A DNA stretch of 63,939 bases from IMG/VR virus record IMGVR_UViG_2061766007_000696; one strand, written 5' to 3'. The number at the start of each line of letters is the position of its first letter. Positions within the stretch are counted from its first letter, which is position 1. The position numbers were made by a program, and so were the translations under genes. The notes under the pieces are model-generated. The model saw nothing but the letters and a program-made list of their open reading frames with translations, was not told where the DNA came from and did not search any database. Origin of the DNA: an uncultured virus (IMG/VR IMGVR_UViG_2061766007_000696) (taxonomy: Duplodnaviria > Heunggongvirae > Uroviricota > Caudoviricetes). This document shows, piece after piece, positions 4,801-52,979 of this stretch.

Positions 4801-7800
4801 ATATCCGCGCCAGTCATTTGTATTAAACCATGTAGAATTAGGAAACTTAGTAATAAGAGCTGTCTGTTCTGTTAAATCAGCCTCAAGATATTCCTCAAAT
4901 GCTGTGTTATCTGTAATCACAACAGAATTAGTAGCATCAATAATCTGCAAACAAGTATAATAAAGAGGATTGCCATATTCTTCATTGACCATTACTTTAG
5001 CATCAGCAATTGGTACTGAACCTGTATCTTTATATACAGAATTACAATGAACAAGAGCGTTATAAAAAGTTCTTGTGTTAGTGTTATCAAACCATCTGTA
5101 CACACCATTATCAGGATATGTAACTTTCGCATTAGCTTTTGCTGTTTCAAGAAGATTTTTCTGACCATTTAACTGAACCTCCCACGACTAAAGTCGCGGG
5201 GTTCCTGGGACTAGCAGACTATCGTCTACTTCATTACCAGGCTATCCCCGTAGTTCCTACGGTTCTTATATATATTCTTATACTGCTGTATTTAATATAT
5301 TTATTGCAGCGTTTATATCTCTGTCATGTTTTGTTCCACATTCAGGACATATCCATTTTCTTACGGATAAATCCTTTGTCATGGAATCTTTATAACCACA
5401 GATATGACAAGTCTGAGAAGATGCATAGTATTGGTCTACTTGCTTTATTTCTCGACCATACCATTTGGCTTTATACTTAAGCTCTCTCTCAAATTCATAC
5501 CAAGAAACATCTGATATCTGGTTACGCATTTTTGCTTTTAATTTATTTGTTCCTTCTGCATTAGATATCATCTGTTTGATGTTTAAATCTTCCATACAGA
5601 TAACATCATTTTCTTTGATTAGTTTTGTAGAAAGCTGTTGTAAAAAGTTTCTTCTCTGATTGGAAATCTTTTCATGCTGTCTTGCAACTTTGATTCTTGC
5701 TTTTTGCCAATTTCTTCCACCTCTTGTTTTTCGAGATAGTGAACGTTGGAGCTTTACAAGTTTCTTTTGAGACTTTGCAAGATATTTAGGATTTTCATAT
5801 TTATCTCCAATAGAAGTTATACAAAAATCTTTTATCCCAAGATCTATTCCAATCTGCTTGTCTGTTTTTGGTAAAGGCTTTACATCTACATCCGTACAAC
5901 AAATTGATACATAATATTTTCCACTTGACTCCTGCGAGATAGTAGCATTTAAAATACGTCCTTGCGGTATCTGTTTATCTCTAGTCTTAATCCAGCCAAG
6001 TTTTGGAAGTTTAATCTTCTTATCTAAAAACTCAATATTATTGTTGGTATAATTCGTCCTATAAGAAAATCTATGAGTTTTCTTTGACTTAAATTTTGGA
6101 TATCCAACAGACTTGTCTCTGAAAAAGTTCTGATAAGCAATATTCAAATCTTTCAAACAATTTTGTAAAGCACACTTATCAGGTTCTTTCAGCCATTCAA
6201 GTTCAGTTTTTAATTTAGTCAAGTTTTTACTGCACTCATTATAATTCATAGTGCGTGATTCTTTTTCATAGACTTCTTTACGTTTGGCAAGATAGTAGTT
6301 GTATACAAATCTTGTACATCCAAACGTCTTAGCTATCAGTATCTTTTGTTGTTTGTTCGGGTATATCCGATATTTATAAGCCTTTTCCATTTAACTTATC
6401 CTCTAAGTCGAGTATTCGTTCCATCATCTTAGGTATGTATTCAGGAGGAACAGAACCATTTCTTTCCCATTTCTGAATCGTTCTTACAGGAATCTCAAAG
6501 TATTCTCCGAACTTTGCTTGGGATAATCCCGTCTTTTGTCGTATCTCTTTGATGTTCATAATAAACTCCTTTACGGAATTTACTATACTCTATTAGAGCA
6601 GATATGTCAATAAAAATATATATAAGAATCGTAGTGATTCTTAGTCGTATTAGAGGTTGTCGTTCACATAGGTTCGCTAGTTCCTATGCATCCTTATCCA
6701 CTTTATTGTTTAGTGGTAGGTATCTGGCACTTTCGTACCAGCACAGACTATATCTTATCCATGCCATATTTCTACGGTTTAGGCGAAAACATTTCGGTAC
6801 GCTTGTACCTACGAACCTCACGAGTTCTAGTCGTTGAGGGCAAGACTATTCGTCTATTCCCTGCTGATTTGCGATTGCTAAAGTATTTAGGATTTAACCT
6901 TGTACCATCTAACAGATTTTTTCCGCTTTCGCCACTTTCACGCTCAGAGCTTTTCGCTCTCACGTTGTAGTTCTGTTAGCTTTACGCCACCTTATCGCTA
7001 AGTTTATATTCGATAAGACTTGTTCCAGCATATAAGTTTTCTTCGTTGGCGGATTTCCACCGCTCTACGTGCAAGTTTCCCTACACGCTGACTTTTTCGT
7101 AAACGTTCGCTTACTCATGACTAAAGTCACGAGTGTGCGCTCACGATTTAATCAACTGTTAACTGATGATAATATCTATCTATGTCTATTATCTCATAAG
7201 CATTATTATATGGTCTCAGCATTTCAGAATAAACATTATTAAAACTAATAATAGTTTGAGCAGTAGAACTTGAAATTATTTCTGTTGGTTCGGGATGTGC
7301 ATCATAAATCTGTCCTACATGATCTAATATATGTAAACGTTTTACAGCATCATTATAAACTTGGTCGTCTAATTGATACACTTCTTTTTGTCTACGTTCG
7401 TTTACTTTCTTTTTTTGTTCATATTGCCCAATATAATTATTTATTCTATTTTTTTCTCCTTTTACTATGCTATAAGTCATATTATAATTAAGCAGCTTTA
7501 CATCTTTACCATCATTAATAGGATTACGTTTATCAAAATATTCCCAATAACCATTTGTTTCATATAATATTTCATGAATTTCATGAATTTCAATAGCAGC
7601 ATTGACAGCTTTATCAATAGCATTTGCATTATCATCAGAAACAAAAGCTTGTCCTATTTTTAGATTATATTCATCTTTATATGAATGATCTTTGTTTTCT
7701 TCATATTGTCGGATTATTCTCTCTGCATAATTTTGTAATTGCATTGGAGATAATATTCGTTTACAAGTGATTACTCCTTTAACATTCGGATTTTCATATG

Positions 7801-10587: not shown

Positions 10588-13500
10588 TTACTTTTTAATT
10601 TTGGAATTCAATTCATTAAATGCTTTTGTAATAGCTTTTTGCGNNNNNNNNNNNNNNNNNNNNNNNNNNNNNNNNNNNNNNNNNNNNNNNNNNACATTTC
10701 CGATGCTCAAGGTTACATTGCCTACGTTATTAGTTTTAACTTTGTTAACTTTCATAACACTTCGCATGAATTCTTGAGGGTCTTGAGCCATCTTATAAAG
10801 ATTTTCGGTTTGTGCTTTAGTAAGAACAGTATCGCCAGCTTTAAGAGGTGTTAAGATTGCATTACGAGTAGGAGAGAGAATTGCTTCTTCACCATATTCC
10901 TGAGTCCAGGCAATTTCGTCCTTTTTAAGAGTGCGAACACCGCCTGCGTATTCAGAGAATTTCTTTTTTGCCTTCTCAATCTTTTTACCCCAACTTCTTA
11001 CAGCAGAAATGAGATTATCAATATCTTTTTGAGCAGACGCATTCTTTCCCTTCTTTTTCTTTTTCATATGATCTATCAATTGCTCTAAAGCTTCTAATGC
11101 TTCATTATATTTGCCTTGTTTATATAGGTTATTAATCTGATTCAGCGAATACTTCGTACCATTTGGATTGTTTTTATCATAGGCTTGTATCCAATTATCA
11201 CCAGTCTTAGTGGAAATAATATTCTTACTTTCAAGAACGGCAATCTTATTTTTAAGATCACCTTGTTCTGTTGCTAATTCAGTGAAATATTCTTCTTTTT
11301 CTTGAACTTTCTTTTGACGAGCTGTTTCTGCCTTTAGAGCAACATCATAGTCTTTAAGTTCTTGAATGATATTCTTGATATATTGACCAGCACCTGTTGT
11401 TCCAGTTTCTATTCCACTGATTATAGCTGAAGAAATAGTATCAGACATAGTGATGCCATACTCACCTAGCATACTTGTCATGCTACCAAAAGCATCATCC
11501 ATATGTCCATTTAATTCACCTACAGTTTCATTAAAGAGAGCTTCAGTATCTTTAAGCTTTTCTTCAAGACGTTTTATTTCCCTGTTTTTAGCTTCTTCGT
11601 ATGCTTCTGCCTGAGCATCTAATGCTTTTTGAGCTACATCCATGGAATGATTATACTGTTTATCTTCAAGCTTTTCTTTTGCTTCAGCTAATTGCTCTTC
11701 GAGTTCGCGCCTTTTAGCTATTGCTGATTGGCTATTATCGTTTTCAATGGCTGCAAGTTTTCTGGTTATTTTGTAGATATCCTTCTGACTTTCAGCTACA
11801 GATTTTTGATAATCATGAAGATCCTTTTGCGACTTTAAAGCCTCTTGTTGCTTCTTTATTAATTCTTGATATGCTTTAATCTGTTCTTCAATGATATCTA
11901 TTTCTTTTTCAATTCGTTCTTTTGCAAGGTCTACAATCGCATCTTTTGCACCCTTTGCTGCTTCGGCAGATTCATACATAGCCGAACGAATTTCCTGAAG
12001 ACGTTCTTGATATTCTGTTGAATTTTTATCATCCGCATATTTCTTATCAAGATTCTCTAACTCTTTCTTATATCTAGCTACTTCTTTAATATTGCCTTTA
12101 TAACTATATATCTGAGTAGCCATCATTCCATAANNNNNNNNNNTCATCAATAGCATCATCTTCATTAAATAAACTGTTAATACTTTGAAGTTCATCATCA
12201 TAAGATTTAGCTATTGCATGGCGCATCTCAAGTCTTTCAAATGTAGCATCTCTAGCATTTTTTTCAGCTTCAGCCATCTTTTCCATAGCTTCAAGTCTAG
12301 CTTGTTCAACTTCATATATTTCTTCTTGAAGTTTTAAGTCTTGCTCAGAATTCTTAATTATGTTTCCAGCAGCAATCATTTGCTGACGTTTTGCTTCCAT
12401 TCTGTCAGCCTTCTTGCCTTCTTTATAGGCTAACTTTTTATAATTCTTAGCTTGAGCTTTATACATTGTTGGGNNNNNNNNNNNNNNNNNNNNNNNNNNN
12501 NNNNNNGAGAAATCGAGGAAATGACGTACTTTTTGAGTAAATCTCTCAAATACCTCACCAAGATATTCAACTTTTTCAACCGCTAAATCACCTATCTTGG
12601 TCTGTATTTCCTCAACAGATATCTTTGCGTCATCAAGCTTATCTTTCCACTCGATTGCTTTATCAATTGCCTCGGACATTGCCTGGTCAGTAATGGTCTG
12701 AATACTATGTCCATTACCCTCAATACCATCGATTATACTCTTGTCAAGTCCTTCAATAGCTTTCTTGTATTCTTCACCATAAACCTTAACTTGTTCCTTT
12801 GCAGTCTCAAGTCGTTTCTTTTGTGTCTTGATTTCCTGGTTAAACCAATAGTTTGCACCATCAGATCTTGAATAATATGTCTTATCAGCATTAGCACGTT
12901 TTGCAGCATATAAATCAGCCTCTTTCTGAAGAACTTTCATTCTTCTTTCGAGCCAGTCATATACCTTTTCAAATTCTTGCTCTGCGCCCTCAGCCATTTC
13001 CCCACTAGCATCACCAGCTGCCTCGGTCAGTCCTGAGAAATCTACATTTGCAAATCCCTCACCGCCAAGAAGAGTCATAGCATTCTGAAGACCTTGATAG
13101 ATTACGTTGTATGCCTCAGCAATTGCACCTGTAGCACCACGCATCTGTTGTTCAAGAGCAGCCTGAATAGCAACAGCTTCAGTAGCTGCCATATTAGCTT
13201 CACCTGTGCAGACTGCAAGATAAGCCTCAGCTTGTGCCTCTGTTGTAATACTCTGCATTGTATTGAGAGCATTACGCATCATGGTTACACGCATCTCACT
13301 AAGTTTTGCCTTAGTCGCGTTTTCAAATGCTTGTTCATTTAGTGAGAGAGCACCATTCTCATTCTTGAGCATGTTGAGATAGCGGAAATCCATTTGCATG
13401 AGTTCTTGAGCTTGATCTACACTGATTTTGCCAGTCTTATTGTAGGAATCCATGATTTTCTTGAGCTTTTGATATGCATCGGTAAGATCACTTATTGCAT

Positions 13501-16500
13501 TTGTGGCATCATCAGCAGCATTTGCTGCGTCGTTCATTCCATCAGCGGCTTTGCCAGCACCACCACCTGCTTTAGCATTATCATCAGCATTTCTTCTAGC
13601 TTTTGAACCTTCGTCATCTAAAGCATCACCATAAGATTTTGCAGCAGCAGTAGCATCATTAAATGCTTTCTTTTGTTGTTCATATTTTTTAGCAGTAGCA
13701 ATATCTCCACTTTGATAAGCTTGTTCAATTAAATGATTTACCTCAGAATTGAACGAACTTGCATCTGTTCCGTTAAGTAAATGTCTTAACGCATAGATTT
13801 CTTCTTTAGCAATACCAATTTGCTCACATAGCTCAATAAGCCAACTATAATCACCAGTTATACTAAGACCATTAGCAAGACCCATTTCTAAAACATATTC
13901 AATAAGATCTTGATTTGTTAAGCCTAACTGTTCAGCTTCATCCATTAAATAATCAACAGTTTCACTATGCTTTTTATTACTCTCATCAGCTGTTATATTA
14001 TATTCATGCTGAGCTTCAAGTTCATCAGCTAAAGATTGAGTTACTTTTTGTTCAGCTTCAGCTCTCAAAATAGAACTATTTATATATTGTTGAGCTACTT
14101 GTTCAGACATTCCTGCTTCTTGAAGTTGTGTCTGAATCATTTCTCTATTAGCAGCATTTATTTCTTCAAGAGGTACTTTTGATTTTAANNNNNNNNNNNN
14201 NNNNNNNNNNNNNNNNCATCAACACTTGATGTTGAGCTAGTAAGAATATTTTCGAAATTATCAAAATCAAAACCTTCAATATCTTTAGCTAATTCTCTAA
14301 ATTGTTCTACCTCAGTAATATCAAGATGAACTTTGTTTTCTTTTTCTACCTGTTCTCGCCATTTATCGTAAGCATCAGTAACTTTCTTTAAATCACCTAT
14401 AGAAGAGGCAAACGATTGTTGATTAAATTTTACTTCTGTTTCAATTTCAACTTTTTCTTGTTGAGCTTTTTTGATTTTCTCTTTTAAATCATCAAAGGAT
14501 TTTGCACTATCAACGAATTGATATGCTATTTCTAATTCTTCTTGAGATAAAGAATCAATATGGTCTTTTCCAAATTTAGATGTTAATTGTTGATATGCCT
14601 CAGATTCAACTAATTTTTCTTCTTTTAGTTTATCAATTACATATTGAATTGATACACCATATTTATCAGCTAATGCAATTAATTCATTGTATATTTGAAG
14701 TCTTTCATCACCTTCATCATATAATGAAGCATCAAAATTGATTAAATCTTCATATGAAAGAACATCATAATTTGCATCCTTAAACAATTCTATTTTATTA
14801 CGTAAATCATCTTGAAGATTATCTGTATTAGCTTTGAATTTTAAATCAAATTCCCATTGAGATACCTCAACAGCCAAATCAGGATATATATTTTTTAAAT
14901 ATTGTCGAACTTCATCATTATCAATATTTTTTAATGCTTCTAAATATATATTTGCATATTTTTCTAAAGCAGAATTTTTTTCCTCATCAGATTTAAATCC
15001 ATTATTAAATGCTTCTTTATATTGTTTACCTGCTTGAGTAACCTCATCAACTAACTTAGAATAATTTCCATTTTTTGAAATTAATTCATTTTCTACATAA
15101 TTTTGCCAAAAACCACCTTTATCCTCAATTAATTGATTTGTCTGATTAGCTACATCTGAAAGATAATTTTTTAAATCATCACTTGCACCTAGTTGTTCAG
15201 CTGCTTTTTGAATTTTAAGTAAATCTTTATAAAAAGCATCCCATGTATCCCCATATAAAACTAGAGATTTTTTGTCTTTATCGTAGTTATCTGCAAATGA
15301 TGAAATATTAATATCATCATATTGTTTTACTATTTTCTCAAGTAATTCAACATCTTCTTTTAAAAAGGATGTATTACCTAAATCTAATTTATTGGTAGTG
15401 GCAGAAATCATTTTATCTACTGCTTGTTCATATGGATTTTTGTTATTATTCCATAATTTATCAAACATAAATCCTAGATTTTCTATCCAATTATCAGAAT
15501 GAGGATTTTGCATTTGATTTTTAGTTTCTGCCCATTTCTTAGCAGATAATTCATCTAAAGCTGAAATTTGACCATTTATCGCTTTTGTAATATTAAATAT
15601 GGCTTCTTCCTCAGTACNNNNNNNNNNNNNNNNNNNNNNNNNNNNNNNNNNNNNNNNNNNNNNNNNNNNTCTCTAGCAATTTTACTATCTTCATAAGATG
15701 TATTATTATCAGATAAAATAGTCTGTAACTCTTTTATTTTTTCTTTATAACTGTCTATATCAGTTTTTGTCTCTCGATATGAAGTATTTAATTTTTTAGT
15801 TTCCTCATTCAACATTTTTGAGGCATTTGCACATGTAGTAAATAAAGAAATTAATTCACTTATAGCCCAAGTTACTGCCATAGTTGTAGCAACACTAGCT
15901 ATGGTCAATCCAAGAGATTTTAATGATGTACTTAAAATACCAGTAGCACTATTAGCTTTCTGCATACTAGCAACTATTTCATTACCAGATTTTCCTAACT
16001 TAATTTGTTCTTGAACATATAATCTTGTTGAATCACTTAAATCATCCATTGATTCTGAAAGTAAATCAGCAACTTTGGATTCATCATTTAATATGTCGAA
16101 GAAATTTGATACTAAATCAATTTCACTCTTTTTAAATGCGCCGCCAATTTTCTTGCCTAAAATAGAGGTGGAGAAGTTACCAAAAGAATCAATGTCAAAA
16201 TTAATTCCACCGCCTTTGAGTCCCATAAATGCACCAGCGGCTGCTGACAATATTCCTGGCAAACCATCAGCTGTTTCGACTATTTTATCTAGTACTTGAA
16301 GAATACTATTAGCACCTTCAACTACATCTTTAATAAAACCACTCTTGAGAGCATCATAAGCCAATTCTTCAAGAGAGGCTTTTANNNNNNNNNNNNNNNN
16401 NNNNNNNNNNNNNNNNNNNNNNNNNNNCTGATGCATCTTCAGCTGTTTTATATGCTGCTTCAAGAGTGTCTATATTATTAAGTACTGCGTATAGAGCGTT

Positions 16501-19500
16501 TGCATTCCTTTTCCCAGCTAATGCCTCACCTAATGATCATTTATATTTTATAAGTTCGTAACACTTATATTTAATTAAGATATTTTTTTAATTANNNNNN
16601 NNNNNNNNNNNNNNNNNNNNNNNNNNNNNNNNNNNNNNNNNNNNNNNNNNNNNNNNNNNNNNNNNNNNNNNNNNNNNNNNNNNNNNNNNNNNNNNNNNNN
16701 NNNNNNNNNNNNNNNNNNNNNNNNNNNNNNNNNNNNNNNNNNNNNNNNNNNNNNNNNNNNNNNNNNNNNNNNNNNNNNNNNNNNNNNNNNNNNNNNNNNN
16801 NNNNNNNNNNNNNNNNNNNNNNNNNNNNNNNNNNNNNNNNNNNNNNNNNNNNNNNNNNNNNNNNNNNNNNNNNNNNNNNNNNNNNNNNNNNNNNNNNNNN
16901 NNNNNNNNNNNNNNNNNNNNNNNNNNNNNNNNNNNNNNNNNNNNNNNNNNNNNNNNNNNNNNNNNNNNNNNNNNNNNNNNNNNNNNNNNNNNNNNNNNNN
17001 NNNNNNNNNNNNNNNNAAATGTTGTTCACCATCATATTCAATACAAACATTATTATTGGGTAAGTAAAAATCAAAAGGAAGTTCTCGTTTATCTTTACAA
17101 TCTTTAAAACGATATTGAGAAATAAAAGGAATATTTAGACTATTAAGAAAAGTAGTTATTGCTTTTTCGCCTTTATAAAAATGTTCACAATTAGGACATT
17201 GTTTACTTTGAGATTGTATCATAGACTGTGAATGAGATTCCCAAATATGTCCACAATTTAAACATTGAAATTTTGCATTCNNNNNNNNNNTCTTTTAATT
17301 TTTCTTCTAAATACCAAATAGGATAATTATGTCCCGTACAATATACACAACCAACTTTACATCTTTTCATATTATATTTCTGCATAAATTGTATTCCTAA
17401 ATCTTTATGTTTTGGACATATAAAATAAATCCCAATTTTACCTTTTTGTCTTCCTGAATCAATATATTCAAACCCTTTTGATTCACATAATAATTTATCT
17501 TCATCCTTATTTAATTCAACTACATGTGCTTGTTCTGTACGTTCTCTGCCACAATAATAACATCCATGTCCTACATTAAATTTCGTAACTTTTATTTCCT
17601 GAACACCTTTATCTCGATGTTTAGAACAAATATATTTAATTTTTGTATTTACATTTTGATATTCACTTTCTTTCGAAATTACCTCATAACCTTTTGAATT
17701 AAATCTTTTTACTATATCATCAAATGTATATTTACCCATTTATTACCTCTTTTATATCTTAATTAAACCCATACTTTCATATGGGATTAGACTATTTCTT
17801 CACCTTTTCTAAAAAAAAACAGAAGAAGGGCATACTTTTTCCATTTAATTGATTTTCACAAACTCCTTAACTTGAGCCGTACTCCTATTGATCTAAGTAT
17901 TCGGGATTTTCACCTTGATTTGATAACTCAAATGAGTATTCTTAGATCCCTACATGGGGATAGTCGTTGAACGTTTACCCTCGACTAATATTTCTTAATC
18001 AGAACATAACGTTAGGGTACTTCGCTGCATGAACCACCAATTCTTACGTTGTAAAACCATCATATAGTGATTTCTCCTATATTGTGGTGTAAGACTCTAA
18101 GGTTTTACCTGCAATTAAATATGTTCTTTAATATATATTTCTATATATTCAGGCAATCTTATTTGCCTGCTCTATATCAGTGAGATTTTTCCACTCTTTA
18201 CCAATACCTAATACTATTTCATAAATATCTTTAAAAGTATTTTCATCCTTCATGATATCAAAGCCAGTCATACCTTTAACCATATCACGAAGTTTTGAAG
18301 TACTCTCTACTATAGTTTCTTCTTCTTCACCCATTTCAATGAGTTCACTCTTCGCACCGCGTATACGTGCGCTCATAGTTTTCCACAATGTACCTACTGA
18401 TGTGGGNNNNNNNNNNGCCGTAATTAACGCAATAGATTTTGACAAATCAGTGTTTGCAGCATTAAAAGAAGCTGCTGAACGTTGAAGTGCCTCACCTATA
18501 CCCGCAGTATCAATTGCAAAGTTATTTGCTCGTTCTGTTACTATAAAATCGCAGATTTTATTATGACTTAAATTTATTTTAAGCGGATAGTTCTTTCGAG
18601 CTATCTCTCACGTTTCATATAAATAGGATTATTGCGTGAGTCCAGACTGTATATTCACCCTATTAAATAGGGGAGTAACTTCAGAATAATTGTTACCAAT
18701 CACTCCACCGCAGTCGTTACGCATTCTGTAGTAAAATACTTTCGATAATTTTCAATAGATTGAGATTGAAATGGTATTATTAGATTTGAATTAAGTTTTA
18801 ACTGATTAGTATATGACCAATTAAATGAATGATAATTCAGTAATTGATAATGATTATTTAAAGAGTCAATAAACTTAATGATTAATTCAACACAACAATA
18901 ATTGTTTTTAGCAATTAAGTATTCTCTTGTAAATTTATATATTTCTTTACCACACTTAGCACAAGTAGTTCGAATTTTTATATGTTTTCCTTTAATATTA
19001 AGATAATAATACAATTTAATAATGTCATCTAAAGATTTACCTATACTTGTAGCAATATCATTTAANNNNNNNNNNNNNNNNNNNNNNNNNNNNNNNNNNN
19101 NNNNNNNNNNNNNNNNNTGACGATCTAACCACATATCAACATTACATTTTGAAACTACAAAATTTGACTTTACTCGTCTATAATTCATATGTGTTTTTGG
19201 AATCATTTTATTACACGATTCACAAAATAGTAATCCATTATAATTATCAAATATTTCTTTTTTCATATTTTTACCACAGTCTTTGCTCGGTCTTATGTGT
19301 CCTATCACTATTTTAACCGATATAGTTACTATCATCCAGTATAAACTGAAGCATTTACATTACTGTAAATGGAGGCAAACTTTACCTCATTATATTTATC
19401 TATTACAGCTTCAGCATCATCAGCTGCAATATGAAAACCTTGCAACGTTGAAATTAAATAAGAACTTGCGTCATCAGCTGTCATATTATCACCAACAGTC

Positions 19501-22500
19501 GTGAAGAGGGCAGTAACTCTAGCAAGTTCCTCTGCATCATCTACCGAATAGCCTAGCCTTGACCAATCGGCAGTTACGTTAATTACATGTTCAATAGTCT
19601 GACCGAGTTCTTGTGCAGTCTTTGCAGACTTTTCAAAACTCTGTGCCAACCTATCATTACTTGCGTCAGATACCTTACGCAATTCAGTTATAGCAGTATC
19701 AAGAGCAATAACCTCTTGGCTTGCTTGTCTAATATATCTTATCCAATCCTGGATACTAAAATACTGAGCAATAAACTGAGCATTAACACNNNNNNNNNNN
19801 NNNNNNNNNNNNNNNNNNNNNNNNNNNNNNNNNNNNNNNNNNNNNNNNNNNNNNNNNNNNNNNNNNNNNNNNNNNNNNNNNNNNNNNNNNNNNNNNNNNN
19901 NNNNNNNNNNNNNNNNNNNNNNNNNNNNNNNNNNNNNNNNNNNNNNNNNNNNNNNNNNNNNNNNNNNNNNNNNNNNNNNNNNNNNNNNNNNNNNNNNNNN
20001 NNNNNNNCTCTTAGATAATTTATTTAAAGATGTTTGGGCAGCTTTTTTATTTGATGATAATCCTTTATCCCCTAAAATATTACTAATCTGATCATCTAAT
20101 TCTTTTAATTTAGCACGACCTTCTTCAGTATCAATATCAATAGGGGTTTTATTTATTTCAATAATCTTTTTTCGTAATTCATCTAATTGGTCAGTATAAG
20201 AATGTGTAAATTTTTTGCTATTAAGCATATCATCTATTTTTAACAGCGTTTTATCATACGAACCTTTTTTCTGAGATATAAAATCATCACCAGCATTATT
20301 TAAAAATCTTGCTTTAGCAGCATCAAGTTTTTCCAAGCTTTCAGCAGAACCATTAGCCCATCTTGTATATTCCTGAACACCTCTTGTTGCCTCATCCCAA
20401 GCTTGTTTAAGACCGGCTAATTCTTGTTTCTCCTCAGGCTTTACTAATTCCCCAGAATCCTCTTTAGTTAATAATTCATAATATCTACTTGCTTTGGCAT
20501 ATAACTCATCATATGCTTTTGTGGCAGATTTATTATCTGTACTTGCAGCATCTATATGACTTTTTCGCCAATCTTCATGTGCTTTTTGTTGAGCAGCAGC
20601 TGCCTCTTGAACAGCTTTAGCTTTTTCTTTTTCTGCCTTTGCTGCATCCTCAGCTAGGTATTTATTACGAATTTCTTCCTCATTCAAAGCTCGAATAGCA
20701 GTAACAGTTGCTAACTGTTCACGATTTGTCTTATATTCTGGCTGTGCAGCCATATATTTCATAAGATCCTCATAAACAGCTAATTCTTGTTTCTTTAAAC
20801 CAAGAATTTCACGAAGAGGTGTAGCCTCAGATTCAGATGCTTGACTAATTTTTCTTTCTAAATCAAGAATAGCAGTATCATCACTTATAATTTCTTTGAG
20901 TAATTTGTCATAATTAACATCATAAGTATCGAATCTTTCTAATTCTTTTTCTTTTGTTTCAGGATTAGTCACCATTCTATAAGATGTCTTTTGATTCATA
21001 ACTTTATTCAAAGCTTTTGTATAAGCGTTATGCCCCTCAAAAGTTCCATCCTCTTTTCTTATCCATCCACCATTTTCAAAGAAATCAATCTTAGCCTGAT
21101 GAGCACCACCCATAATATCTAAACCATTTAAATCCGTAAAGCTATTTTGCATATTACGAATTTCCTCGGCTGTTAATCTTGCTTGATTTTGAGTAGCCTC
21201 TAATTCATTACATAAATTATGAATAGCATCAGCATACAATCTAGGTTTTGTATTTTCATCAAGAACCTCTAAGTCCTCAAAATACTGTCCGTTTGAGGTT
21301 TGCTTTAATTGTCTCATTGAGCCAATTAATTCTTCATTTTCATCCTCAAGACTTTGTTCAGCTTGTTTTGCACGATTTGCACTGATAACCATATCTTCAT
21401 ACATTTCTTGTCCAGATACAGTTATATTGTTCTTAGGGGGTTTTGGCGGTTGATTAGGTGGGGTAGGAGGATTCATAGAACCACCTAACGCAGTCCTAAC
21501 AAAACTATCCATCGGCGTTGTATGAGTATCTAATCTGAATGCTCTTTCAACAATATCAGCCATAGTAAGAGCCTCAGATTCAACCTCACGTATAGCTTGA
21601 ACAGCCTTTTCTGATTCTTGTGAAATTTTGTGCACACCCTCAGAAACAATATTAGTAGTACTTTTAGCTGTTTCTTTTAAACTATTTAAATATTCATCAA
21701 TATATGCTAATTTATTTTGATCAGCAATTCCATTTTCATCCATAACTGGAATTTTAAATGCATTTTTACCTGTTAACTCAGCTATATATTTATTAAGAAT
21801 ATTAAAAGCATCAATTGCATCTAAAGAACCTTTTTTATAATCCTCAAGTATTTTTATTACACCAACATCTGATGTATTTATTTTTTCATCTAATCCATAT
21901 TGTACAAGATTAACAAGCTTTTCGACAGGTGTAAGAGCATCAGCTGAATTATCACGTATTTTAATTAGTGCTTTAGCTATTTCCTCTGTATTTGAAATAT
22001 CAAATGTTTGTAATCTATCACTTAATCCATGTTTATCTAATACTTGAGATAGAACTGGACTTAATAATTCTTTCTGTTTTTCTGTCTTAAGCGAGGAAAA
22101 ATCCATACCGTTTATTTTTGATTTTTTAACAGCATTTAAGCCTTTNNNNNNNNNNNNNNNNNNNNNNNTTCACAAATTTTTTTGTCTAATCCAGAAAAAT
22201 CAACAAGTTTAAATACTTGTTCAGATAATAAACCAAAAGACTTAAGACCATTTTCATAAAATCCTGATTCTGATAAACCTAACAAATCATCCCATGAAAA
22301 ATAATTTGAACCTTTAGAAACATGATTATGTATTGAGGTAGTTATTCCCTCATCAAGAGTATCTAATAAACTTTTATATAAAGATTGTTCATTTATAGCA
22401 TCAGAGAACATTCCATTTATATAACCAGTTAATCCATTTTTACCAAACTGAACACCATTTTCTAATTTATTAGATAACATCTTAGAAAATAATTCTGATA

Positions 22501-35720: not shown

Positions 35721-38700
35721 TTATACCCCCACTAATACAATATCTACACTGCCAGTTATTCCGTTATAAGAGGTATAGGAAACATGTAATGTTTCACCTA
35801 TATATTCATCACCACCAATGAATTTTATACGAAGCTGATTTTCCTCACACTCATCAATTGTAGAATCAATAAGAGTTGAAATATCAACATCATTAATAGA
35901 AAAGTCCCAAGTACCAGTATAGAAATCTATATATTCATCGTTTTTATAAAAAGTCACTGAAAATTTTTTATAATTACCACCAATTTTAATTTCTGGTTTT
36001 CCGGGATATGTAATTTCTAATCTGAATTTGGGAGTTTTTTCTTGATAATCTGATGGAATTAATCCATCAGCATAATAATCAGCATACATACCTTGAATAG
36101 AGGAGGGATCATTTTCATCTTCGTATTCAATATAATCTTTATGCTGATCAAATAAATCTTGTGCAAGAGTAGCAAGAATAACGCCATTTGAATTAATACG
36201 ATTTATCTTACTTATTTTCCATGCACGAGGTTCTGCACCATTAAGAACATCAACTTTATTATCTATAATCATTCGCTGATTATAATAAAGTTTTTCTGAC
36301 AAAGAGTTGGCTGGAACGAGGAACTTTTGCTGATCCTCGATGGAAGTTCAAATTTGTTACTCCTCAAAAAGAGGGGACAGGTCATTTCTGCCTATCTCTA
36401 CGGTTTCTTAATTCGATTATAGCCGTAGTTCAGACCATACCTTTCACTCAGAGAGTGAGATAGCATACTTTATATTGTTACCAATATAAATGTGGTCGTT
36501 GCGGGATTTATTTGAAAAATAAGAAATAACAGGATATAATATACTACGGACAGATACATATAGGTGAGGTGGTTGAGTCGCATCAGGATAGTGATATCCT
36601 GTTTATATAAAATCCCTCCATCTTAGGGAAATATACTAAGAAAGGAGGTGATAGAGTGACCCTAATAACATTTTTGTTTTCCATATTAGCAAGTTTAATT
36701 GCTAACTTTATTACATCTTATTTTTTAAGATTAATAGATAACAAAAATGACCACCAGTGCCATGGTGATCATTAGTGTATAATTATCTATGCTCTTATCA
36801 TCTCGGCTCAATCGCCTCGTATCTGTCTTTTATTTATTATATCATTTTTTCTTTATAAGTCAAATAATCTTACCCTCAGAATTGCCCATCTCTGGGGTTT
36901 CTCTGATTTGAGCTATCAGTTTACCTATATGTCACCATATAGGGAGACAATTTCTTATCTTATACAATTGTGTTACTTTATAAAGTCGTTAATTTTATAA
37001 AGAAAACTATATTGCACAATATAAATCTTCATAAATTTTATGTTTACGTTCNNNNNNNNNNNNNNNNNNNATAAATCCAATCTAAAAATCTTTTAACTTG
37101 TTTTCCACCTGCTATTTGTAAAGTTCTAGTTGATACATCTGTCTTATGATGACATAACATTATAGAACAATTTACGTCTAATTTTTCCTTCACAATTTCT
37201 GCTATCTTTTTACAAAAATTTTCAGTACTTACAAGTCTTGCTCGTTTTTCTCTAGGACTTTTACAAAGATTACCATCACCATCCATGTATCCTAATATAA
37301 ATGAATTANNNNNNNNNNNNGTTGGAAATTCTAATATTAAACTTTTATTTGGAAAAATACCATGAGATATCAAAGCATCATGAATATGAGTATTAGAAAT
37401 TGTTAAACAGTATTGATTACTCCAATTTGGATTCTTATCATGATATGGAATTAAAGTTAATTTATAATCACATTCTAAATCTTTTTTAAATTGTTCTAAT
37501 ATATAAACATCTTTTTCTTGTAAAGATATTTGAACTCGATTACTATTTTTACTTACTGTTCCATCGGCATATAACAATCCTAAATAATATGCTTTCCTAT
37601 GAGAATCAATGTTATCAAAATAATTTTCATTTATTATTTTTGTGCGTTTCTGTTCTGATTGAGTATAAATATGAATATTATTTTCTAACAATATTTTTTT
37701 TATTCTTTCAGATGTTATATGTAATTCCTCGCTTACTCGTTTTAAACTATGATATTTCTCATATAAAATAATAACTTCATTTTGATTTATATCTTTATTC
37801 ATACCTTATTTCCTCTAAAAATATGCATAAAAATAAAAGTCATAATTCTAAATGTTAGAGGCATTTAGAAAACGGTTTGCAACCCGCTGTCTGACTTTTA
37901 TTACTATTTACAATATGTTTTTTTCTTATGTTTTCACATAAGTTCTGACTATATCTTCACCCTTACAAAAGGGGTCGCCCATTTCGGCTACTTAGCCTAC
38001 ATAATAGTCGATGAACTTCATCCTATTCGGATTTTAGATGCTGATTATCCAATCTAATATTTTTTTAAACATTCACGCTTATGTTATTTCACCATTACGT
38101 TGTAGTATATTAGCTCTAAGGAACTTCCAGCAATTAAAGCGATTTTCTTATAACATTACTGCTATAAGGGACTATTTTACTAATCCGTCCAAACTCCACT
38201 CACTTTGTTATCCTAAAGGCTTTTTATCCTCTAGTTCTCATAGTCGCCTATGAGGTCAGCATATATCATCATCCGTTCTGGATGCCGGACACTCTTGGAG
38301 ATATTATATTTATTCAACCTCTATGCGTTACAATACTTATTAGCCAAGACTACACTATTATTCGAGAGTGCAAAGGTTTTTTAGTTCTATCCTCAAGAAC
38401 CAATATTTGTGCCTAGACCTTATTTATTGTCCGAGTCTAGTTAGACACGAATTCTTTGTCTTGCTATCTAATAAGTTATCACGGTATTATCTTAAGTAAG
38501 ACTTCACCGTTTTTGCCCAGTTTTCATCTATATATTCCTATATAGCGCAACCGTTTGATTGTAGGAATTTTGGGATCTTAAACAACCAGCCATTCTTATC
38601 TTTTTGCCATTCCATACCCAATCAAAAATCTTATCACAAGGTAATACTTCAAAAGTTGGAAACTGTGATACAAAATAATTTGCAGTACCAACAACTAACC

Positions 38701-39097
38701 AACGATTATAAATGCCTTTTTCATCTGGAATATCAATATATAATCCAACAGGAAAAATCGCATTATAACGATTTCCAAAATATTCCGAATAATAATCAAC
38801 ATTCATTTTTTGTGATGGTTTAAATTGAATATGATGAGTCACGACATCTTTATCAAAAGTTTGTGCAGAACTTCTTCGCCATTTTACGGTAATGGCCACC
38901 TTGTCAGGGTCTTTTTCAGGATGCAAGTCTTTAAGTCTCGTCTTACAATTATCATGCCAATAATCATAAAGATAACAAACACGAGTGTTTATATCCCCAT
39001 CAAAAGTAGCATCCATAATCATATCCGAATTATCTTTTCGAGCTTGTCCTAAAGTTTTAGAACCTAACATTTTTCTATAAGTATCAAGGGTTGGCAT
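35721..39097 (-). CDS. Head-tail joining-type virion protein split by three group I introns; exons 38558-39097, 38183-38200, 36957-36964, 35721-36348 (397 aa)
   Basis: Spliced reading ...LRSQNSYN/SGVWTD/YKI/TSIEDQQKFLVPANSLSEKLYYNQR; exon sum 1194 nt is in frame; function inferred from position. Confidence 0.85.
36512..36540 (+). promoter_or_regulatory. Sigma-A promoter of intron-nested toxin-like gene
   Basis: TTGAAA-17 nt-TATAAT. Confidence 0.75.
36656..36775 (+). CDS. Type I toxin-like membrane peptide, 39 aa, antisense inside intron
   Basis: AAAGGAGGTG RBS, GTG start, MTLITFLFSILASLIANFITSYFLRLIDNKNDHQCHGDH: one TM helix plus charged tail. Confidence 0.8.
   Translation: MTLITFLFSILASLIANFITSYFLRLIDNKNDHQCHGDH
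36742..36863 (-). ncRNA. Putative antisense antitoxin RNA (~90 nt) with its promoter
   Basis: TTGACT-16 nt-TATAAT (36863-36836); terminator ATGATCACC...GGTGGTCAT-TTTT overlapping the toxin 3' end. Confidence 0.65.
36965..38182 (-). ncRNA. Group I intron 2 of the head-tail gene (LAGLIDADG in P9 region)
   Basis: P1 GGAT/TAGTAAAATA GTCC; TAATTGCTGGAA, AATCAGCA, TTCATCGACTA, GAAGATATAGTCA; ends ...AACACAATTG. Confidence 0.9.
37007..37802 (-). CDS. LAGLIDADG homing endonuclease
   Basis: AYYLGLLYADG and FILGYMDGDG motifs; C-terminus ERKHKIYEDLYCAI after gap. Confidence 0.92.
38201..38557 (-). ncRNA. Group I intron 1 of the head-tail gene (no ORF, 357 nt)
   Basis: P1 CAAT/CAAACG GTTG; P4 ACGGT/ACCGT; variant P7 GCATA/TATGC; ends ...AACAAAGTG. 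Confidence 0.85.
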
Positions 39098-39451
39098 CAT
39101 CCACCTCCTTGATTTTTAAAACAGCGTTACCCGCATCAAGAATAAATTTTCTATACATACTCCAATTAAAATTAGGTTTTTTATATTCTATAAACGCCGC
39201 ATTAACCAAAGATATAACATCAACAAATTCTTGTGGATAACCCAACAAATCATTTAACCCACCAAAAGTATTTAATACATTTTGGAAAGTAGCTNNNNNN
39301 NNNNNNNNNNNNNNNNNNNNNNNNNNNNNNNNNNNNNNNNNNNNNNNNNNNNNNNNNCAACAATAAGAAGTAAAAAGAATATTTTTTTACGCATTTTTTC
39401 TTTAATCTCACTTACTTGTTTATTGGAGAATTCACCATATTTAAATTTCAT
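39084..39451 (-). CDS. Hypothetical morphogenesis protein (gapped; missed by ORF track)
   Basis: MKFKYGEFSNKQVSEIKEKMRKKIFFLLL...YRKFILDAGNAVLKIKEVDDANP; GGAGG RBS. Confidence 0.7.
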
Positions 39452-43746: not shown

Positions 43747-45396
43747 TTATTTAATTATTCTTNNNNNNNNNNNNNNTTTAGATGAATTCTTTGTTTTTAT
43801 AGGAAGTGGCTTAAATCCATAAGCTCTTTTCTTTTCTTCTTGAGGTTTTTCTTCAAACTCAAGCTTACCAGCTTTAGCATACTGAAGAAGAGTATCATCT
43901 AATTTCTTAGCGAGTTCTTCTTTGCTAAGTGAAAAATAATTCTCCCTCTTTGAAATTTCAGCATACTCTTCAGTATTCTTTATCTTTGCATAATCTTCCG
44001 AATTAAGAAGTTCAATCTTTTCAGGTTCAGCTTCATACTGAGCAAGTTTTTCAGAAATAGAAGAGTAGTTAGATTTCATAGATTCAAGTTGAGTCTGTTC
44101 ATCTTTAGTAAGATAAGTTGCAAATACCTCAACTCTATCCCCTTGAAGACTAAACACATCTTTCTTTACTGAATACTTTTGCTTATAATTCTTTCCACTA
44201 AAGAATCCAAACATAAATACTTCTTTAGTCTCTTCATTAGCATCAATATCATACCATTCATTATCAGATTCACTATAAGTTTCATTAACTAATGTATAAA
44301 GAGCATTCAGTTTATCAACAAGACTACAACTAAATGTCTTTGTTTCACCATTAATTGTTACTGAAAAACTAGCAAAATTATCTGATGTTGAATCCGGTTC
44401 CGGTTCGGGTTCCGGTTCAGGCTCTGGTGTAGGCTCTGGCTCAGGTTCTAAATTATCCCCCTCGTTTCCAGTAGCAGAAGGTTCACCATTTTCATCAAAT
44501 GCTTCAGCAAATGCTTTCTCAAGTGCTTCGTCATCAAGACCCTCATATTCAAAAGTAATATCTTCTACAGACTTACCATATTTTTGTAAGAGTTCTTCAA
44601 ATTTGTTCATTTGATTGTTTTCCTCCTTTCCTTTGGAATTTTTATTATCTAAAGCCTCTTGTACAGAAGCCTGAATAAACTGTTTTAAATTCTCGTCAAG
44701 TTCAAATTTTGCAGAATTATTATTTAAACTGAAATCCGCTATATCAAGTCTTGCACCCTCCATTCCCTCACCTATAGGTTCTTTTGTTTCAGGATCAATT
44801 CCAAGACATGTAAGACCAGCAACCTCAACATCTGTTAAAAGAAGTTCCTTTTCTTTACTATCATAGGACATTTCATTAACAGCTAATTCTACAGATACCT
44901 TTGTTCCATTTTTTCTTTCTATAATATCAGCTGCCTCTGTATAATCTCTCGGAATAGCACATTTAGCATAAACATAATATCTATTATCATGTTTCTCATC
45001 TTTTTCTAAATATGGTTCATCTGCTGTAAAACAACCAATTTGTTTTTCAAAATAAACAATATTTCCATCCTCATCTATTTCAAAATCATGTGATGTAAAA
45101 TCAACATTACCATTTTCATCTGTTGTGAAATTAGCCAATATTGGTTTATATGCCATTGTTTTACAGGCTTTTTTTGCAGCATCATAAGTTAAATTAGATC
45201 CGTTCCTATTACGACCTGTGTGCATAACTGTAACATCCCCAAATAGAAGAGTAGTACTTTCCTCTGATTTTTTAAAAGTAGCTGGAACTTGAACAAATAA
45301 TTGATATCCAGAATTCTTAGAACTAAAAGAATATAATTTTTGATTTTCACAAAATTTGACGAGATCTTCTAAAGTAAGCATTTTCTTCTTTTTCAT
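43747..45396 (-). CDS. Prohead protease/scaffold fusion (YonD-like)
   Basis: MHTGRNRNGS...KPILA...SHDFE...KVSVEL...CLG...GMEGA protease-like half, acidic PEPE linker, coiled-coil C-terminus; start MKKKKML with GGAGG. Confidence 0.8.
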   Translation of the reverse strand: MKKKKMLTLEDLVKFCENQKLYSFSSKNSGYQLFVQVPATFKKSEESTTLLFGDVTVMHTGRNRNGSNLTYDAAKKACKTMAYKPILANFTTDENGNVDFTSHDFEIDEDGNIVYFEKQIGCFTADEPYLEKDEKHDNRYYVYAKCAIPRDYTEAADIIERKNGTKVSVELAVNEMSYDSKEKELLLTDVEVAGLTCLGIDPETKEPIGEGMEGARLDIADFSLNNNSAKFELDENLKQFIQASVQEALDNKNSKGKEENNQMNKFEELLQKYGKSVEDITFEYEGLDDEALEKAFAEAFDENGEPSATGNEGDNLEPEPEPTPEPEPEPEPEPDSTSDNFASFSVTINGETKTFSCSLVDKLNALYTLVNETYSESDNEWYDIDANEETKEVFMFGFFSGKNYKQKYSVKKDVFSLQGDRVEVFATYLTKDEQTQLESMKSNYSSISEKLAQYEAEPEKIELLNSEDYAKIKNTEEYAEISKRENYFSLSKEELAKKLDDTLLQYAKAGKLEFEEKPQEEKKRAYGFKPLPIKTKNSSKXXXXXRIIK

Positions 45397-45573
45397 CAAG
45401 ACCTCCAAAATAAAAAAGACTGGTAAAACCCAGTCAGAATTATTATAATGATGTATAAGGGTAAACATCCGTTATATGGCGAAAAAATAGGCGGTTGAGT
45501 CGCACCAGAGAAGTAATTCTCTGTTTTTATAAAATCCTTTCGAGGAAATATAATCGAAAGGAGGTGTTGCGAC

Positions 45574-45696
45574 TTGGAAGATTTTGTAATTAACTCATTA
45601 TTTCAGTTAATTCCTATGTTAATCATGTGGATAATAACTAGAATTGTAGATAAAAGCAAAAATGACCGCCACGCTGATGACAGTCATAATGCTTAA
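45574..45696 (+). CDS. Type I toxin-like membrane peptide, 40 aa (free-standing paralogue)
   Basis: GAAAGGAGGTG RBS, TTG start, MEDFVINSLFQLIPMLIMWIITRIVDKSKNDRHADDSHNA. Confidence 0.78.
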   Translation: MEDFVINSLFQLIPMLIMWIITRIVDKSKNDRHADDSHNA

Positions 45697-45776
45697 TTAG
45701 TCTTATAATAATCGGCTCAATCGCCTAGATGTTTACTCTTTCCATACAATATAACATGTTTTTACACATTTTGCAA
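45657..45776 (-). ncRNA. Putative antisense antitoxin RNA with promoter
   Basis: TTGCAA-17 nt-TATATT; terminator ATGACTGTCA...TGGCGGTCAT-TTTT. Confidence 0.6.
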
Positions 45777-46540
45777 ATATTTCATGCTTGTCCATCCTTC
45801 AAAATGACCAAAACCATTCTGAATCATATCTATATAAATAACAGAACCAAGTTTTAAATCTCCCATATCTATACTTGAAGCAGAGGATTCATTACGGATA
45901 TTTAGAGTATTAGCGGTAACTTTCTTAAATCCAGTAGTTGGGGATATAGGATTTTTTAAATCTTTTGAATCAATATAAGCAATATCAAGATCAACATTTC
46001 CCTGTATTCCAGGAACTTTTCCTTTACTAGAATATTGCCAAGCATCAGCATAACCTTTTGGATTTAAACCATCTACTATAGAACCATTATCATTTTTAGG
46101 ATATCTCGCAATCCAAAATGAAAATTGTTTTTTTAAATAAATACTATCCAAAACATTATAATACCAATCTTTATTACTATAAATTCCTACCTTATATCCA
46201 ACCTTACGAAATATATCAGCCTCAATTTCAACTATTCTTGTAATATTATTTTTACCAATATTACGTAATGTAGCTGATTCAAGATCAANNNNNNNNNNNN
46301 NNNNNNNNNNNNNNNNNNNNTCTTTAGCATCTTTTTCAGGATTTTCAATATTTTTAGAACCGAAAAAATCATAAACACCTAATTCAATATTATTAGCTTT
46401 ACAACCTTGATAATTTTTTTCAAAATATTCATCAGGTTTATGATTTGTTTCATACATAGCTTTTAAAATAGCAAAAGATTTACCTTCATCTTNNNNNNNN
46501 NNNNNNNNNNNNNNNNNNNNNNNNNNNNNNNNNNNNNNNN
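45762..46540 (-). CDS. GH25 muramidase endolysin with C-terminal SH3b-like domain (start in gap)
   Basis: FAILKA...GVYDF...DLE...GIYSN...FWIARY...WQYSSKGKVPGIQGNVDLD; VTANTLNIR...GW. Confidence 0.9.
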
Positions 46541-52626: not shown

Positions 52627-52707
52627 CGGGGAAGCTGTGATTTGAACACAGGCTATATTGACATGCGTTAACAGCGCACCGCTCTAACCGAACTGAGCTA
52701 CATCCCC
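52627..52707 (-). tRNA. tRNA-Asn(GTT) with enlarged variable region
   Basis: GGGGATG/CTTCCCC, GCTC-AGTTCGGTTA-GAGC, GTGCG-CTGTTAA-CGCAT, CTGTG-TTCAAAT-CACAG. Confidence 0.85.
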
Positions 52708-52908: not shown

Positions 52909-52979
52909 AGCTTCTCACAGGACTCGAACCTGCAACCCTCTGATTACAATCAGATGCACAACCAATTGTGCTAAGAAGC
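52909..52979 (-). tRNA. tRNA-Thr(TGT)-like, anticodon loop one base short (possible pseudo-tRNA)
   Basis: GCAC-AATTGGTT-GTGC, TCTGA-TTGTAA-TCAGA, GCAGG-TTCGAGT-CCTGT. Confidence 0.7.

Follow-up and report, generated by a model that had tools for sequence, protein, structure and literature searches.

The locus at positions 45456-45740 (+ strand) of the uncultured virus record IMG/VR IMGVR_UViG_2061766007_000696 is likely to be a type I toxin-antitoxin module with the architecture known from modules of Clostridioides difficile phages. We refer to the whole stretch of 63,939 nucleotides (63.9 kb) analysed from this record as the window. Its source is an uncultured Bacillota-type phage from the cattle gut, and the locus, here called copy 2, is the second of two diverged copies of the module; copy 1 lies at 36547-36830, also on the + strand, and the window contains no further copies. 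What is observed directly are the sequence features themselves, their covariation between the copies, G-U pairs that form on one strand only, and remote homology and a common layout with validated C. difficile phage modules. From these we infer two transcripts and their ends, toxicity of the encoded peptide, its neutralisation and any biological role, which may be the retention of the phage or of an intervening element, or an action on the host. The feature is real, and the modules of these rumen phages are a new and rare subfamily of a known kind of system. A preliminary description of this DNA had proposed a toxin-antitoxin-like family with long-range closure of the messenger RNA, and that proposal has gained from the covarying closure, the predicted antisense gene, the remote kinship to C. 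difficile toxins and the presence of closure in known loci.

The two copies are marked by their ends, and every sequence string quoted in the preliminary description is indeed present where it had been placed. Exactly two matches to the 5' motif GGYGGTTGAGTCGCA exist in the window, both on the + strand (36568 and 45490), against 0.03 expected. The 3' motif CGGCTCAATCGCCT has + strand matches at 36804 and 45713 (0.11 expected in the window), and its third match, with two mismatches, corresponds to the - strand reading of the 5' arm; the arms are therefore imperfect inverted repeats. Both copies fold with unusually low energies: copy 2 (45455-45745) reaches -86.0 kcal/mol (z -6.48) and copy 1 (36545-36835) reaches -95.6 kcal/mol (z -8.24), and none of 200 shuffles of either was as low. 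The minimum-energy structure of each includes a 5'-3' closure of 25-28 base pairs (28 in copy 2), so that the common leader and trailer arms pair in both folds, as had been suggested. This closure comprises an outer helix (36548-57/36819-28 in copy 1; 45457-69/45728-40 in copy 2) and an inner helix (36566-80/36804-18; 45488-502/45713-27), and a GNRA hairpin follows the inner 5' strand (36584-601; 45506-23). In copy 2 the copy-specific 5' strand of the outer helix (45457..45469, +) has its partner at 45728-45740, and the common 5' strand of the inner helix (45488..45502, +) forms 15 base pairs with 45713-45727. The 3' strands of both helices together occupy 45713..45740 (+) and double as the 5' part of the antisense target described below. 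The hairpin at 45506..45523 (+) has seven base pairs and a GUAA loop, is followed by a run of U and has the appearance of a terminator.

Comparison of the two copies indicates that these helices form in RNA. The two closure helices and the GNRA hairpin offer 32 pairs for comparison, which were brought into register manually, since a linker of unequal length causes MAFFT to misalign the outer arm. Between copy 1 and copy 2, 21 of these pairs are unchanged, one differs on one side only, ten are compensatory and none is broken. The compensatory changes are spread over the outer closure (six of its ten in-register pairs), the inner closure (one) and the hairpin (three). The extension of the closure by copy-specific ends and the covariation of the hairpin, both noticed beforehand, are confirmed. 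Shifting the 3' partners by one to three positions broke 22-28 of the 32 pairs, and when the 3' letters were re-dealt among the 11 changed pairs none of 100000 deals kept every pair. The pairing is also specific to one strand: the inner closure includes G-U pairs (two in copy 2, three in copy 1) that form on the + strand only, four pairs are broken when the closure helices are read on the - strand, and the minimum energy of the reverse complement is weaker by 9-11 kcal/mol. To judge from this pattern, the closure and hairpin are a real RNA structure on the + strand. No known RNA family accounts for it in Rfam: at gathering score the window gave only two transfer RNAs (tRNAs) and no model over the module, and in E-value mode 45350-45850 gave seven matches, each far under its gathering score.

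An antisense RNA gene did not figure in the preliminary description, and one is predicted for each copy, in a matching location. In copy 2 a putative antitoxin promoter on the - strand (45748..45776; TTGCAA, a spacer of 17 nucleotides, TGn-TATATT; 9/12 in the promoter scan) overlaps the last codons of the lysin gene, and its relative position equals that of the 11/12 promoter of copy 1. It would give rise to an RNA of ~87 nucleotides (45652..45741, -) with an open 5' half, an 11-base-pair terminator (45687..45662) and a U-tract. The counterpart in copy 1 (36740..36863, -) consists of a promoter at 36863..36836 (TTGACT, a 16-nucleotide spacer, TG-TATAAT, 11/12), a predicted RNA of ~87-88 nucleotides (~36829..36742) and a terminator at 36773..36746. 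In both copies the predicted antisense start falls 2-5 nucleotides outside the 3' arm. Folding of the predicted RNA leaves its 5' half, which is complementary to the 3' arm and the 3' untranslated region (UTR), unstructured, and the 3' half forms the terminator hairpin.

The terminators lie within the last codons of the toxin open reading frame (ORF) in both copies, each with 11 pairs and a T-run. Read in register on the - strand they have 11 contiguous pairs in both copies, whereas on the + strand they contain internal C-A mismatches, one in copy 1 and three in copy 2. Since the closure pairs fully on the + strand only, and the terminator on the - strand only, two convergent predicted RNAs appear to be under selection. 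The codons for K-N-D (AAAAATGAC) also supply the antisense terminator with its U-tract and the base of its stem, and the conserved peptide tail is therefore doubly constrained; such a clear dual constraint cautions against taking the conserved KND as a purely protein feature. Both toxin genes run against the gene flow of the window, in which nearly all ORFs of at least 110 residues are on the - strand, and read-through from upstream phage genes would therefore add long antisense RNA. A second - strand terminator found by the scan (45418..45435) could end such read-through, or a long antisense RNA across the whole toxin gene.

The predicted toxin mRNA of copy 2 is ~285 nucleotides long with a 5' UTR of ~118 nucleotides (45456..45740, +), its ends being placed from the folds; an RNA-library contig covers 45471-45718. 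The copy 2 toxin ORF (45574..45696, +) encodes 40 residues from a TTG start and would yield one hydrophobic helix with a polar, charged tail. Its candidate promoter (45421..45449, +), read from the sequence, has a -10 box TATAAT at 45444-45449 and a weak -35 box TGGTAA at 45421-45426 (3/6). In copy 1 the scan located a better promoter (36512..36540, +; TTGAAA, a 17-nucleotide spacer, TATAAT, 11/12 matches) upstream of a predicted mRNA at 36547..36830 (+) with an ORF of 39 residues at 36656-36775 that begins with GTG; a near-identical orthologue is present on the metagenome contig L119. The distance from the -10 box to the first closure pair is 8 nucleotides in both copies, and the predicted 5' end of the mRNA is therefore the closure arm itself. 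A GGAGG Shine-Dalgarno (SD) sequence precedes the start codon by 9 nucleotides in copy 2 (TTG) and 7 in copy 1 (GTG). In each peptide a hydrophobic stretch of ~21 residues precedes a charged tail (DKSKNDRHADDSHNA and DNKNDHQCHGDH, with two and one lysines) of mixed charge, rich in Asn, Asp, His and Arg. The observation that a KND(R/H) tail is kept while the rest of the peptide has diverged proved accurate, identity outside the tail being ~32%. The related statement that the anti-SD is kept holds in part: copy 1 has a clean CCUCC/GGAGG helix, and the displaced helix of copy 2 (UCCUUUCGA/UCGAAAGGA) leaves some of the SD uncovered. The hairpin concerned spans 45535..45564 (+) in copy 2, with the SD GGAGG at 45560-45564. 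The predicted probability that the SD is unpaired is 0.05 in copy 1 and 0.34-0.39 in copy 2, where the start codon is paired.

Between the GNRA and anti-SD hairpins, alignment of the copies reveals a conserved A/U-rich box TTTWTATAAAATCC (45524..45537, +), flanked by the two hairpins within 45506-45564 and 36584-36648. In both copies the box serves as the T-run of the terminator-like GNRA hairpin on the + strand. On the - strand it is also the T-run of the hairpin complementary to the anti-SD hairpin, listed by the scan for copy 1 at 36629..36613; the corresponding loop in copy 2 is longer than the terminator scan allows. The box and its hairpins may act as a leader attenuator and as the end point of a longer antisense RNA.

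The peptides have few relatives, and those that exist point in one direction. A profile built from the two sequences was searched against 1.84 billion representatives and found homologues of 39 and 37 residues (E values 1.7e-6 and 5.4e-6), both singletons from assemblies and both with an NDR motif in the tail; a third match, to a 14-residue stretch of an 896-residue repeat protein, was discarded as spurious. The sole NCBIfam match of all four peptides is NF047374 ('CD_typeI_toxin', E 9.4e-5 to 0.034), for which the hidden Markov model matches span profile positions 1-31/35 of 51, and all four peptides also match phrog_738. As a control, the toxins of C. difficile phages pass both models (78.8-97.5 bits with NF047374; E ~1e-28 with phrog_738). 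Alignment of the two families with hhalign gave a probability of 93.8% (E 1.7e-7) over 32 columns, in the hydrophobic N-terminal region, and in a tblastn search with the copy 1 peptide eight of ten weak matches were C. difficile phage records. A comparison with known type I toxin families, which the preliminary description had proposed, has thus yielded a remote, sub-threshold kinship to validated C. difficile toxins. Other searches were uninformative: the word-indexed protein search returned nothing for the copy 2 peptide and only the two known peptides for the alignment of four, tblastn of the two homologues against phages gave chance matches or none, the ESM Atlas gave no usable match, and Pfam gave only DUF6249 (E 0.094) and no match to Fst.

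At the level of DNA the subfamily is rare. A blastn search with both copies against GenBank phages gave no match. In IMG/VR, a pattern of leader box plus SD and a pattern of arm plus hairpin each gave 0 matches; the exact arm motifs occurred in 17 and 101 stretches, and blastn of these 118 loci produced two alignments of 19-23 nucleotides that we attribute to chance. The two-arm pattern matched once in 185,579 species genomes, a chance occurrence in a GC-rich metagenome-assembled genome of Stellaceae, and at one locus among metagenome contigs. The latter, L119 (1940 nucleotides), is the near-identical orthologue of copy 1, with a hairpin loop GUAA in place of the GUGA of copy 1. Over its positions 1-1230 it keeps copy 1 and its flanks; it diverges after ~36945 of the window and, as read by eye, contains a different LAGLIDADG-type ORF (compared with window 36945-37802). 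The endonuclease gene therefore appears to have been exchanged while the toxin-antitoxin module stayed.

Sequencing runs from other samples show how the locus varies. Among the matches listed, 20 of 21 runs contain part of the stretch; they come from 14 studies of gut metagenomes (bovine, goat or other), and two of the runs may be the source of the window; variants and coverage were taken from contigs of four runs. A DNA contig of 2157 nucleotides from another study (X5) spans 45300-45882 with 33 differences. Among the 25 of these that are listed, four fall within the 285-nucleotide module and 21 in the 298 nucleotides of flanks. Two of the four, 45511 A>T and 45518 T>A, are a compensatory pair in the hairpin that also occurs in one X3 contig. 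A loop variant, 45515 A>G, changes GUAA to GUGA and keeps the GNRA form. Within the ORF the variants are E2G, F10S and one synonymous change, and none of the variants listed falls in the closure arms. At 45468-45566, contigs of other samples (RNA as well as DNA libraries) have loose ends that match either the 5' arm with the hairpin, or the SD region, before they run into different sequence. This indicates that cattle-gut samples contain additional paralogues of the module that share its 5' arm. Gaps between RNA-library contigs (45384-45467, and 45720-45782 in X20) were considered as possible transcript ends and set aside, as holes in contigs prove nothing.

We envisage that the + strand is transcribed into an mRNA of ~285 nucleotides for a 40-residue membrane peptide with a single helix. 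With its ends paired over 28 base pairs and its ribosome-binding region buried in local helices, this mRNA would be stable and poorly translated. A convergent promoter outside the 3' arm would produce an antisense RNA of ~87 nucleotides that ends in the last codons of the toxin ORF. This RNA matches the 3' arm, the 3' UTR and the last part of the ORF with perfect complementarity and could form a duplex that leads to cleavage or refolding of the mRNA and so to neutralisation. The predicted energies favour cognate partners: the antisense/mRNA duplex reaches -68 to -70 kcal/mol for non-cognate versus -158 to -167 kcal/mol for cognate pairs, and closure between the arms of different copies -24 to -26 versus -38 to -39 kcal/mol. 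A perfect 15-nucleotide core and an identical stretch beside the terminator are common to the antisense targets of both copies. That the copy-specific ends prevent cross-neutralisation, as the preliminary description suggested, is therefore not established. According to the published work on C. difficile (PMC6563280), most antitoxins there act on their cognate toxin only.

A bolder possibility, which we consider unlikely, is that the closure is a switch arm instead of a passive lock, and that copy 1, nested beside a homing endonuclease gene in a phage that is probably virulent, in addition serves a selfish intron, not a prophage, as its addiction module. As the complement of the 3' arm, the antisense RNA is nearly identical to the 5' arm. 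Once bound, the antitoxin could then evict the 5' arm, whose conserved GUCGC(A) would go on to clamp the region of the start codon, with GUGAC as its partner site in copy 1 and GCGAC just 5' of the UUG start in copy 2. Three states would follow: a nascent mRNA that is clamped, a closed full-length mRNA that is competent, and an antitoxin-bound mRNA that is re-clamped and cleaved. In constrained folds with the 3' arm blocked, start-codon accessibility fell from 0.31 to 0.05 in copy 1 and from 0.22 to 0.19 in copy 2; because these folds support the switch in copy 1 and not in copy 2, we retain it as speculation only.

The window covers the structural region of a large siphovirus-like phage, with genes for terminase, portal, a GH25 lysin-like protein, tape-measure pieces and tail fibres. 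The portal shares just 24-27% identity with its counterparts in Lactococcus and Bacillus phages, and a scan of 41 ORFs in the window found no lysogeny gene. Copy 2 fills a 320-base gap between two genes, the lysin-like gene (stop 45762) and a phrog_3313 gene (start near 45396). The former is a GH25 endolysin-like gene (Pfam PF01183, E 2.5e-19; phrog_291). Copy 1 is situated in a phrog_5251-like gene that is split on the - strand (35721-39100), such that the ORF at 38528-39100 corresponds to profile positions 2-136 and that at 35721-36347 to positions 162-222 (E 7.9e-4). The intervening insert of ~2.2 kb holds a LAGLIDADG endonuclease gene (37044-37802) together with copy 1, and Rfam detected no group I or group II intron in the split-gene region at E values up to 1. 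The earlier suggestion that self-pairing ends allow copy 1 to sit harmlessly in an intron loop is not established. Tape-measure-like pieces are found on the - strand at 10588-12201, 15576-16463 and 19332-22106, with HNH/homing endonuclease genes between them at 16575-17739, and positions 5278-6390 hold a gene for a TnpB-like transposase. Selfish elements, namely HNH and LAGLIDADG endonucleases and the TnpB-like transposase, have thus heavily colonised the structural region. Two tRNA genes (52627-52707 and 52909-52979, - strand) are located between the terminase region and an exonuclease gene.

Several observations weigh against a type I toxin-antitoxin module of the C. difficile kind and temper our confidence in it. 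The curated cut-off of NF047374 is missed widely (14.5-22.7 bits versus 60), both peptides lack the lysine-rich C-terminal region that marks the C. difficile toxins, and resemblance between short hydrophobic peptides can come from composition alone. The copy 2 toxin promoter has a poor -35 box and was missed by the promoter scan, its SD is sequestered in part only, and the X5 difference 45751 A>G weakens the predicted antisense -10 box. The terminator scan found no + strand terminator 3' of either copy; the mRNA could terminate at the closure helix and a U-rich run, or be trimmed back to the helix. Contigs from RNA libraries cover the module at 45471-45718 (the whole of a 248-nucleotide contig) and 45519-45873 and are deeper than flank contigs, a weak hint, given that they are contigs only, carry neither strand nor end information and may include DNA. 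Finally, the covariation comes from one comparison and one natural variant pair, and the DNA sequences of the subfamily number three, of which L119 is nearly identical to copy 1. Because the curated cut-off is failed and the lysine-rich tail is lacking, we do not file the module under NF047374; it is probably a remote homologue of that family which shares its architecture.

Other explanations have to account for the same facts. The locus might encode an antisense-regulated small membrane peptide with another phage function, such as a holin-like role, control of lysis timing or superinfection exclusion, with the RNA setting timing and dose. This idea draws on the GH25 endolysin-like gene that adjoins copy 2, on weak matches of the two database homologues to holin PHROGs (E 0.008-0.07), on a report that links a prophage hok/sok locus to phage release (PMC8621323), and on the fact that plasmid-style addiction has no obvious role in a large siphovirus-like phage with no lysogeny gene in the window. 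However, the peptide gene is on the strand opposite to the lysin and to nearly every other gene, copy 1 is far from any lysis gene, a type I toxin model is the top and sole curated family match for four of four peptides, and the whole layout fits validated toxin-antitoxin loci, all of which makes such another function unlikely.

A non-coding mobile or structural DNA or RNA element bounded by inverted repeats, akin to a miniature inverted-repeat transposable element (MITE), in which the small ORF would be incidental, is very improbable. The outermost ends differ between the copies yet stay complementary, and the arm mismatches are G-U pairs on one strand, which speaks for RNA pairing and not for transposase-binding ends. 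By eye there are no direct target duplications at either copy; the ORF, SD and spacing are kept in both, homologous peptides of equal length occur elsewhere, and promoters and terminators stand at matching places on both strands. Set against this are the two dispersed copies with imperfect terminal inverted repeats, the position of one of them inside an intervening sequence beside a homing endonuclease gene, and the richness of the genome in HNH, LAGLIDADG and TnpB-like selfish elements. That the arms are a chance inverted repeat in AT-rich intergenic DNA is effectively refuted. Such phage DNA does fold readily, and convergent -10 boxes add spurious complementarity in the flanks, but none of the 200 shuffles reached the observed energies, the motifs were expected only 0.03-0.11 times, ten pairs are compensatory with none of the 100000 deals keeping all changed pairs, and the arms are conserved in samples of other studies.

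A toxin-antitoxin module remains our preferred reading, and its closest counterparts are those of C. difficile. We compared it with CD0956.2/RCd10 and CD2907.1/RCd9, with their homologues in phiC2, phiMMP01/03/04, phiCD6356 and CDMH1, and with the NF047374 and phrog_738 families. The similarities include the N-terminal transmembrane segment and, by prediction in the rumen copies, the convergent genes, an antisense start at the 3' end of the mRNA, an antisense terminator within the codons of the charged tail, and an mRNA closed from 5' to 3'. They extend to an mRNA of ~290-300 nucleotides with a long 5' UTR and a sequestered ribosome-binding site (RBS), as described in PMC5961336, and to phage-borne modules with several diverged copies per element, as described in PMC6563280. 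For CD2907.1/CD0956.2 the first of these accounts gives a 298-nucleotide mRNA with an 83-nucleotide 5' UTR and convergent overlapping antitoxins of 134 (short) and 283 nucleotides (long), together with a sequestered RBS, a stable toxin mRNA and an unstable antitoxin (PMC5961336). The 5'-3' closure of the C. difficile toxin mRNAs is not described in the portions of the two papers drawn on here, where structures are given as 'data not shown' (PMC5961336, PMC6563280). Folding does reveal it: at the phiC2 locus the fold includes a long 5'-3' closure (-104.8 kcal/mol, z -9.05) and a - strand terminator falls within the ORF, and RNAalifold of five C. difficile phage loci recovered three closure helices that every locus retains, with compensatory changes and a paired start codon. 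The five loci are those of phiC2, phiMMP04, Hain-Saunders-2022a, phiCD6356 and phiCDKH02 (L120 and L124-L127), and their start codon is paired beside the closure.

The rumen modules depart from this pattern in several respects. Their peptides are shorter (39-40 residues), end at the antisense terminator and have a tail not based on lysine, whereas the C. difficile type I toxins are described as having a lysine-rich, positively charged C-terminal region (PMC6563280, PMC7699646). Unlike phiC2-type loci, the rumen leader contains a GNRA hairpin and a conserved A/U box. The host is a rumen bacterium, the carrier resembles a large siphovirus, and one copy lies inside the intervening sequence of a split gene. 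In the portion of the literature drawn on here, reports of the C. difficile type of module are confined to phages, prophages and plasmids of C. difficile and to plasmids of Paeniclostridium sordellii. Our findings extend this type from C. difficile phages into uncultured rumen phages, in a form with a shorter, non-lysine tail, and identify both 5'-3' closure and an antisense terminator within the ORF as conserved, covarying traits of the whole group. Together these two traits provide a structural signature with which unannotated modules might be found in viromes.

Closure of a toxin mRNA by a 5'-3' long-distance interaction is shared with hok/sok of enterobacterial plasmids and chromosomes and with aapA1/IsoA1 of Helicobacter pylori. 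In those systems the closed, full-length mRNA remains inert until 3' trimming activates it, and the antisense RNA is directed at the 5' portion of its target. They are found in Gram-negative bacteria and have no sequence relationship to the modules described here, in which the antisense RNA covers the 3' arm itself. The 5'-3' long-distance interaction is presented as a general determinant of type I toxin mRNAs in the account accompanying T1TAdb (PMC8594479). An antisense RNA that overlaps the 3' end of the toxin mRNA is also a feature of txpA/RatA and bsrG/SR4, which are borne by prophage-like elements of Bacillus subtilis, although no Pfam, NCBIfam or PHROG match links their peptides to ours. 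There, SR4 is stated to affect both decay and translation, and RNase III to act on such duplexes (PMC5961336).

The par system (Fst RNA I/RNA II) likewise combines a small hydrophobic toxin with a convergent antisense RNA. Unlike Fst/par, the repeats in the window are inverted, not direct, and the antisense terminator is one-directional and inside the ORF; because the repeats are inverted, the antisense RNA resembles the 5' arm of the mRNA instead of complementing it. A human faecal phage, MT835565.1 (L121:600-930), encodes a related 30-residue peptide (NF047374 E 4.3e-4; phrog_738 E 0.007) in a layout that is par/Fst-like, with convergent near-perfect promoters (11/12 and 12/12) and a shared 14-base-pair terminator between them. 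Direct repeats of 12 and 15 nucleotides over its start codon recur downstream in the convergent RNA, and folding of this locus gave no 5'-3' closure (duplex z -0.7). One toxin scaffold is thus associated with two antisense designs, closure with 3' overlap in the rumen modules and par-like direct repeats in MT835565.1, and this makes the group a natural system in which to study the exchange of antitoxin RNAs.

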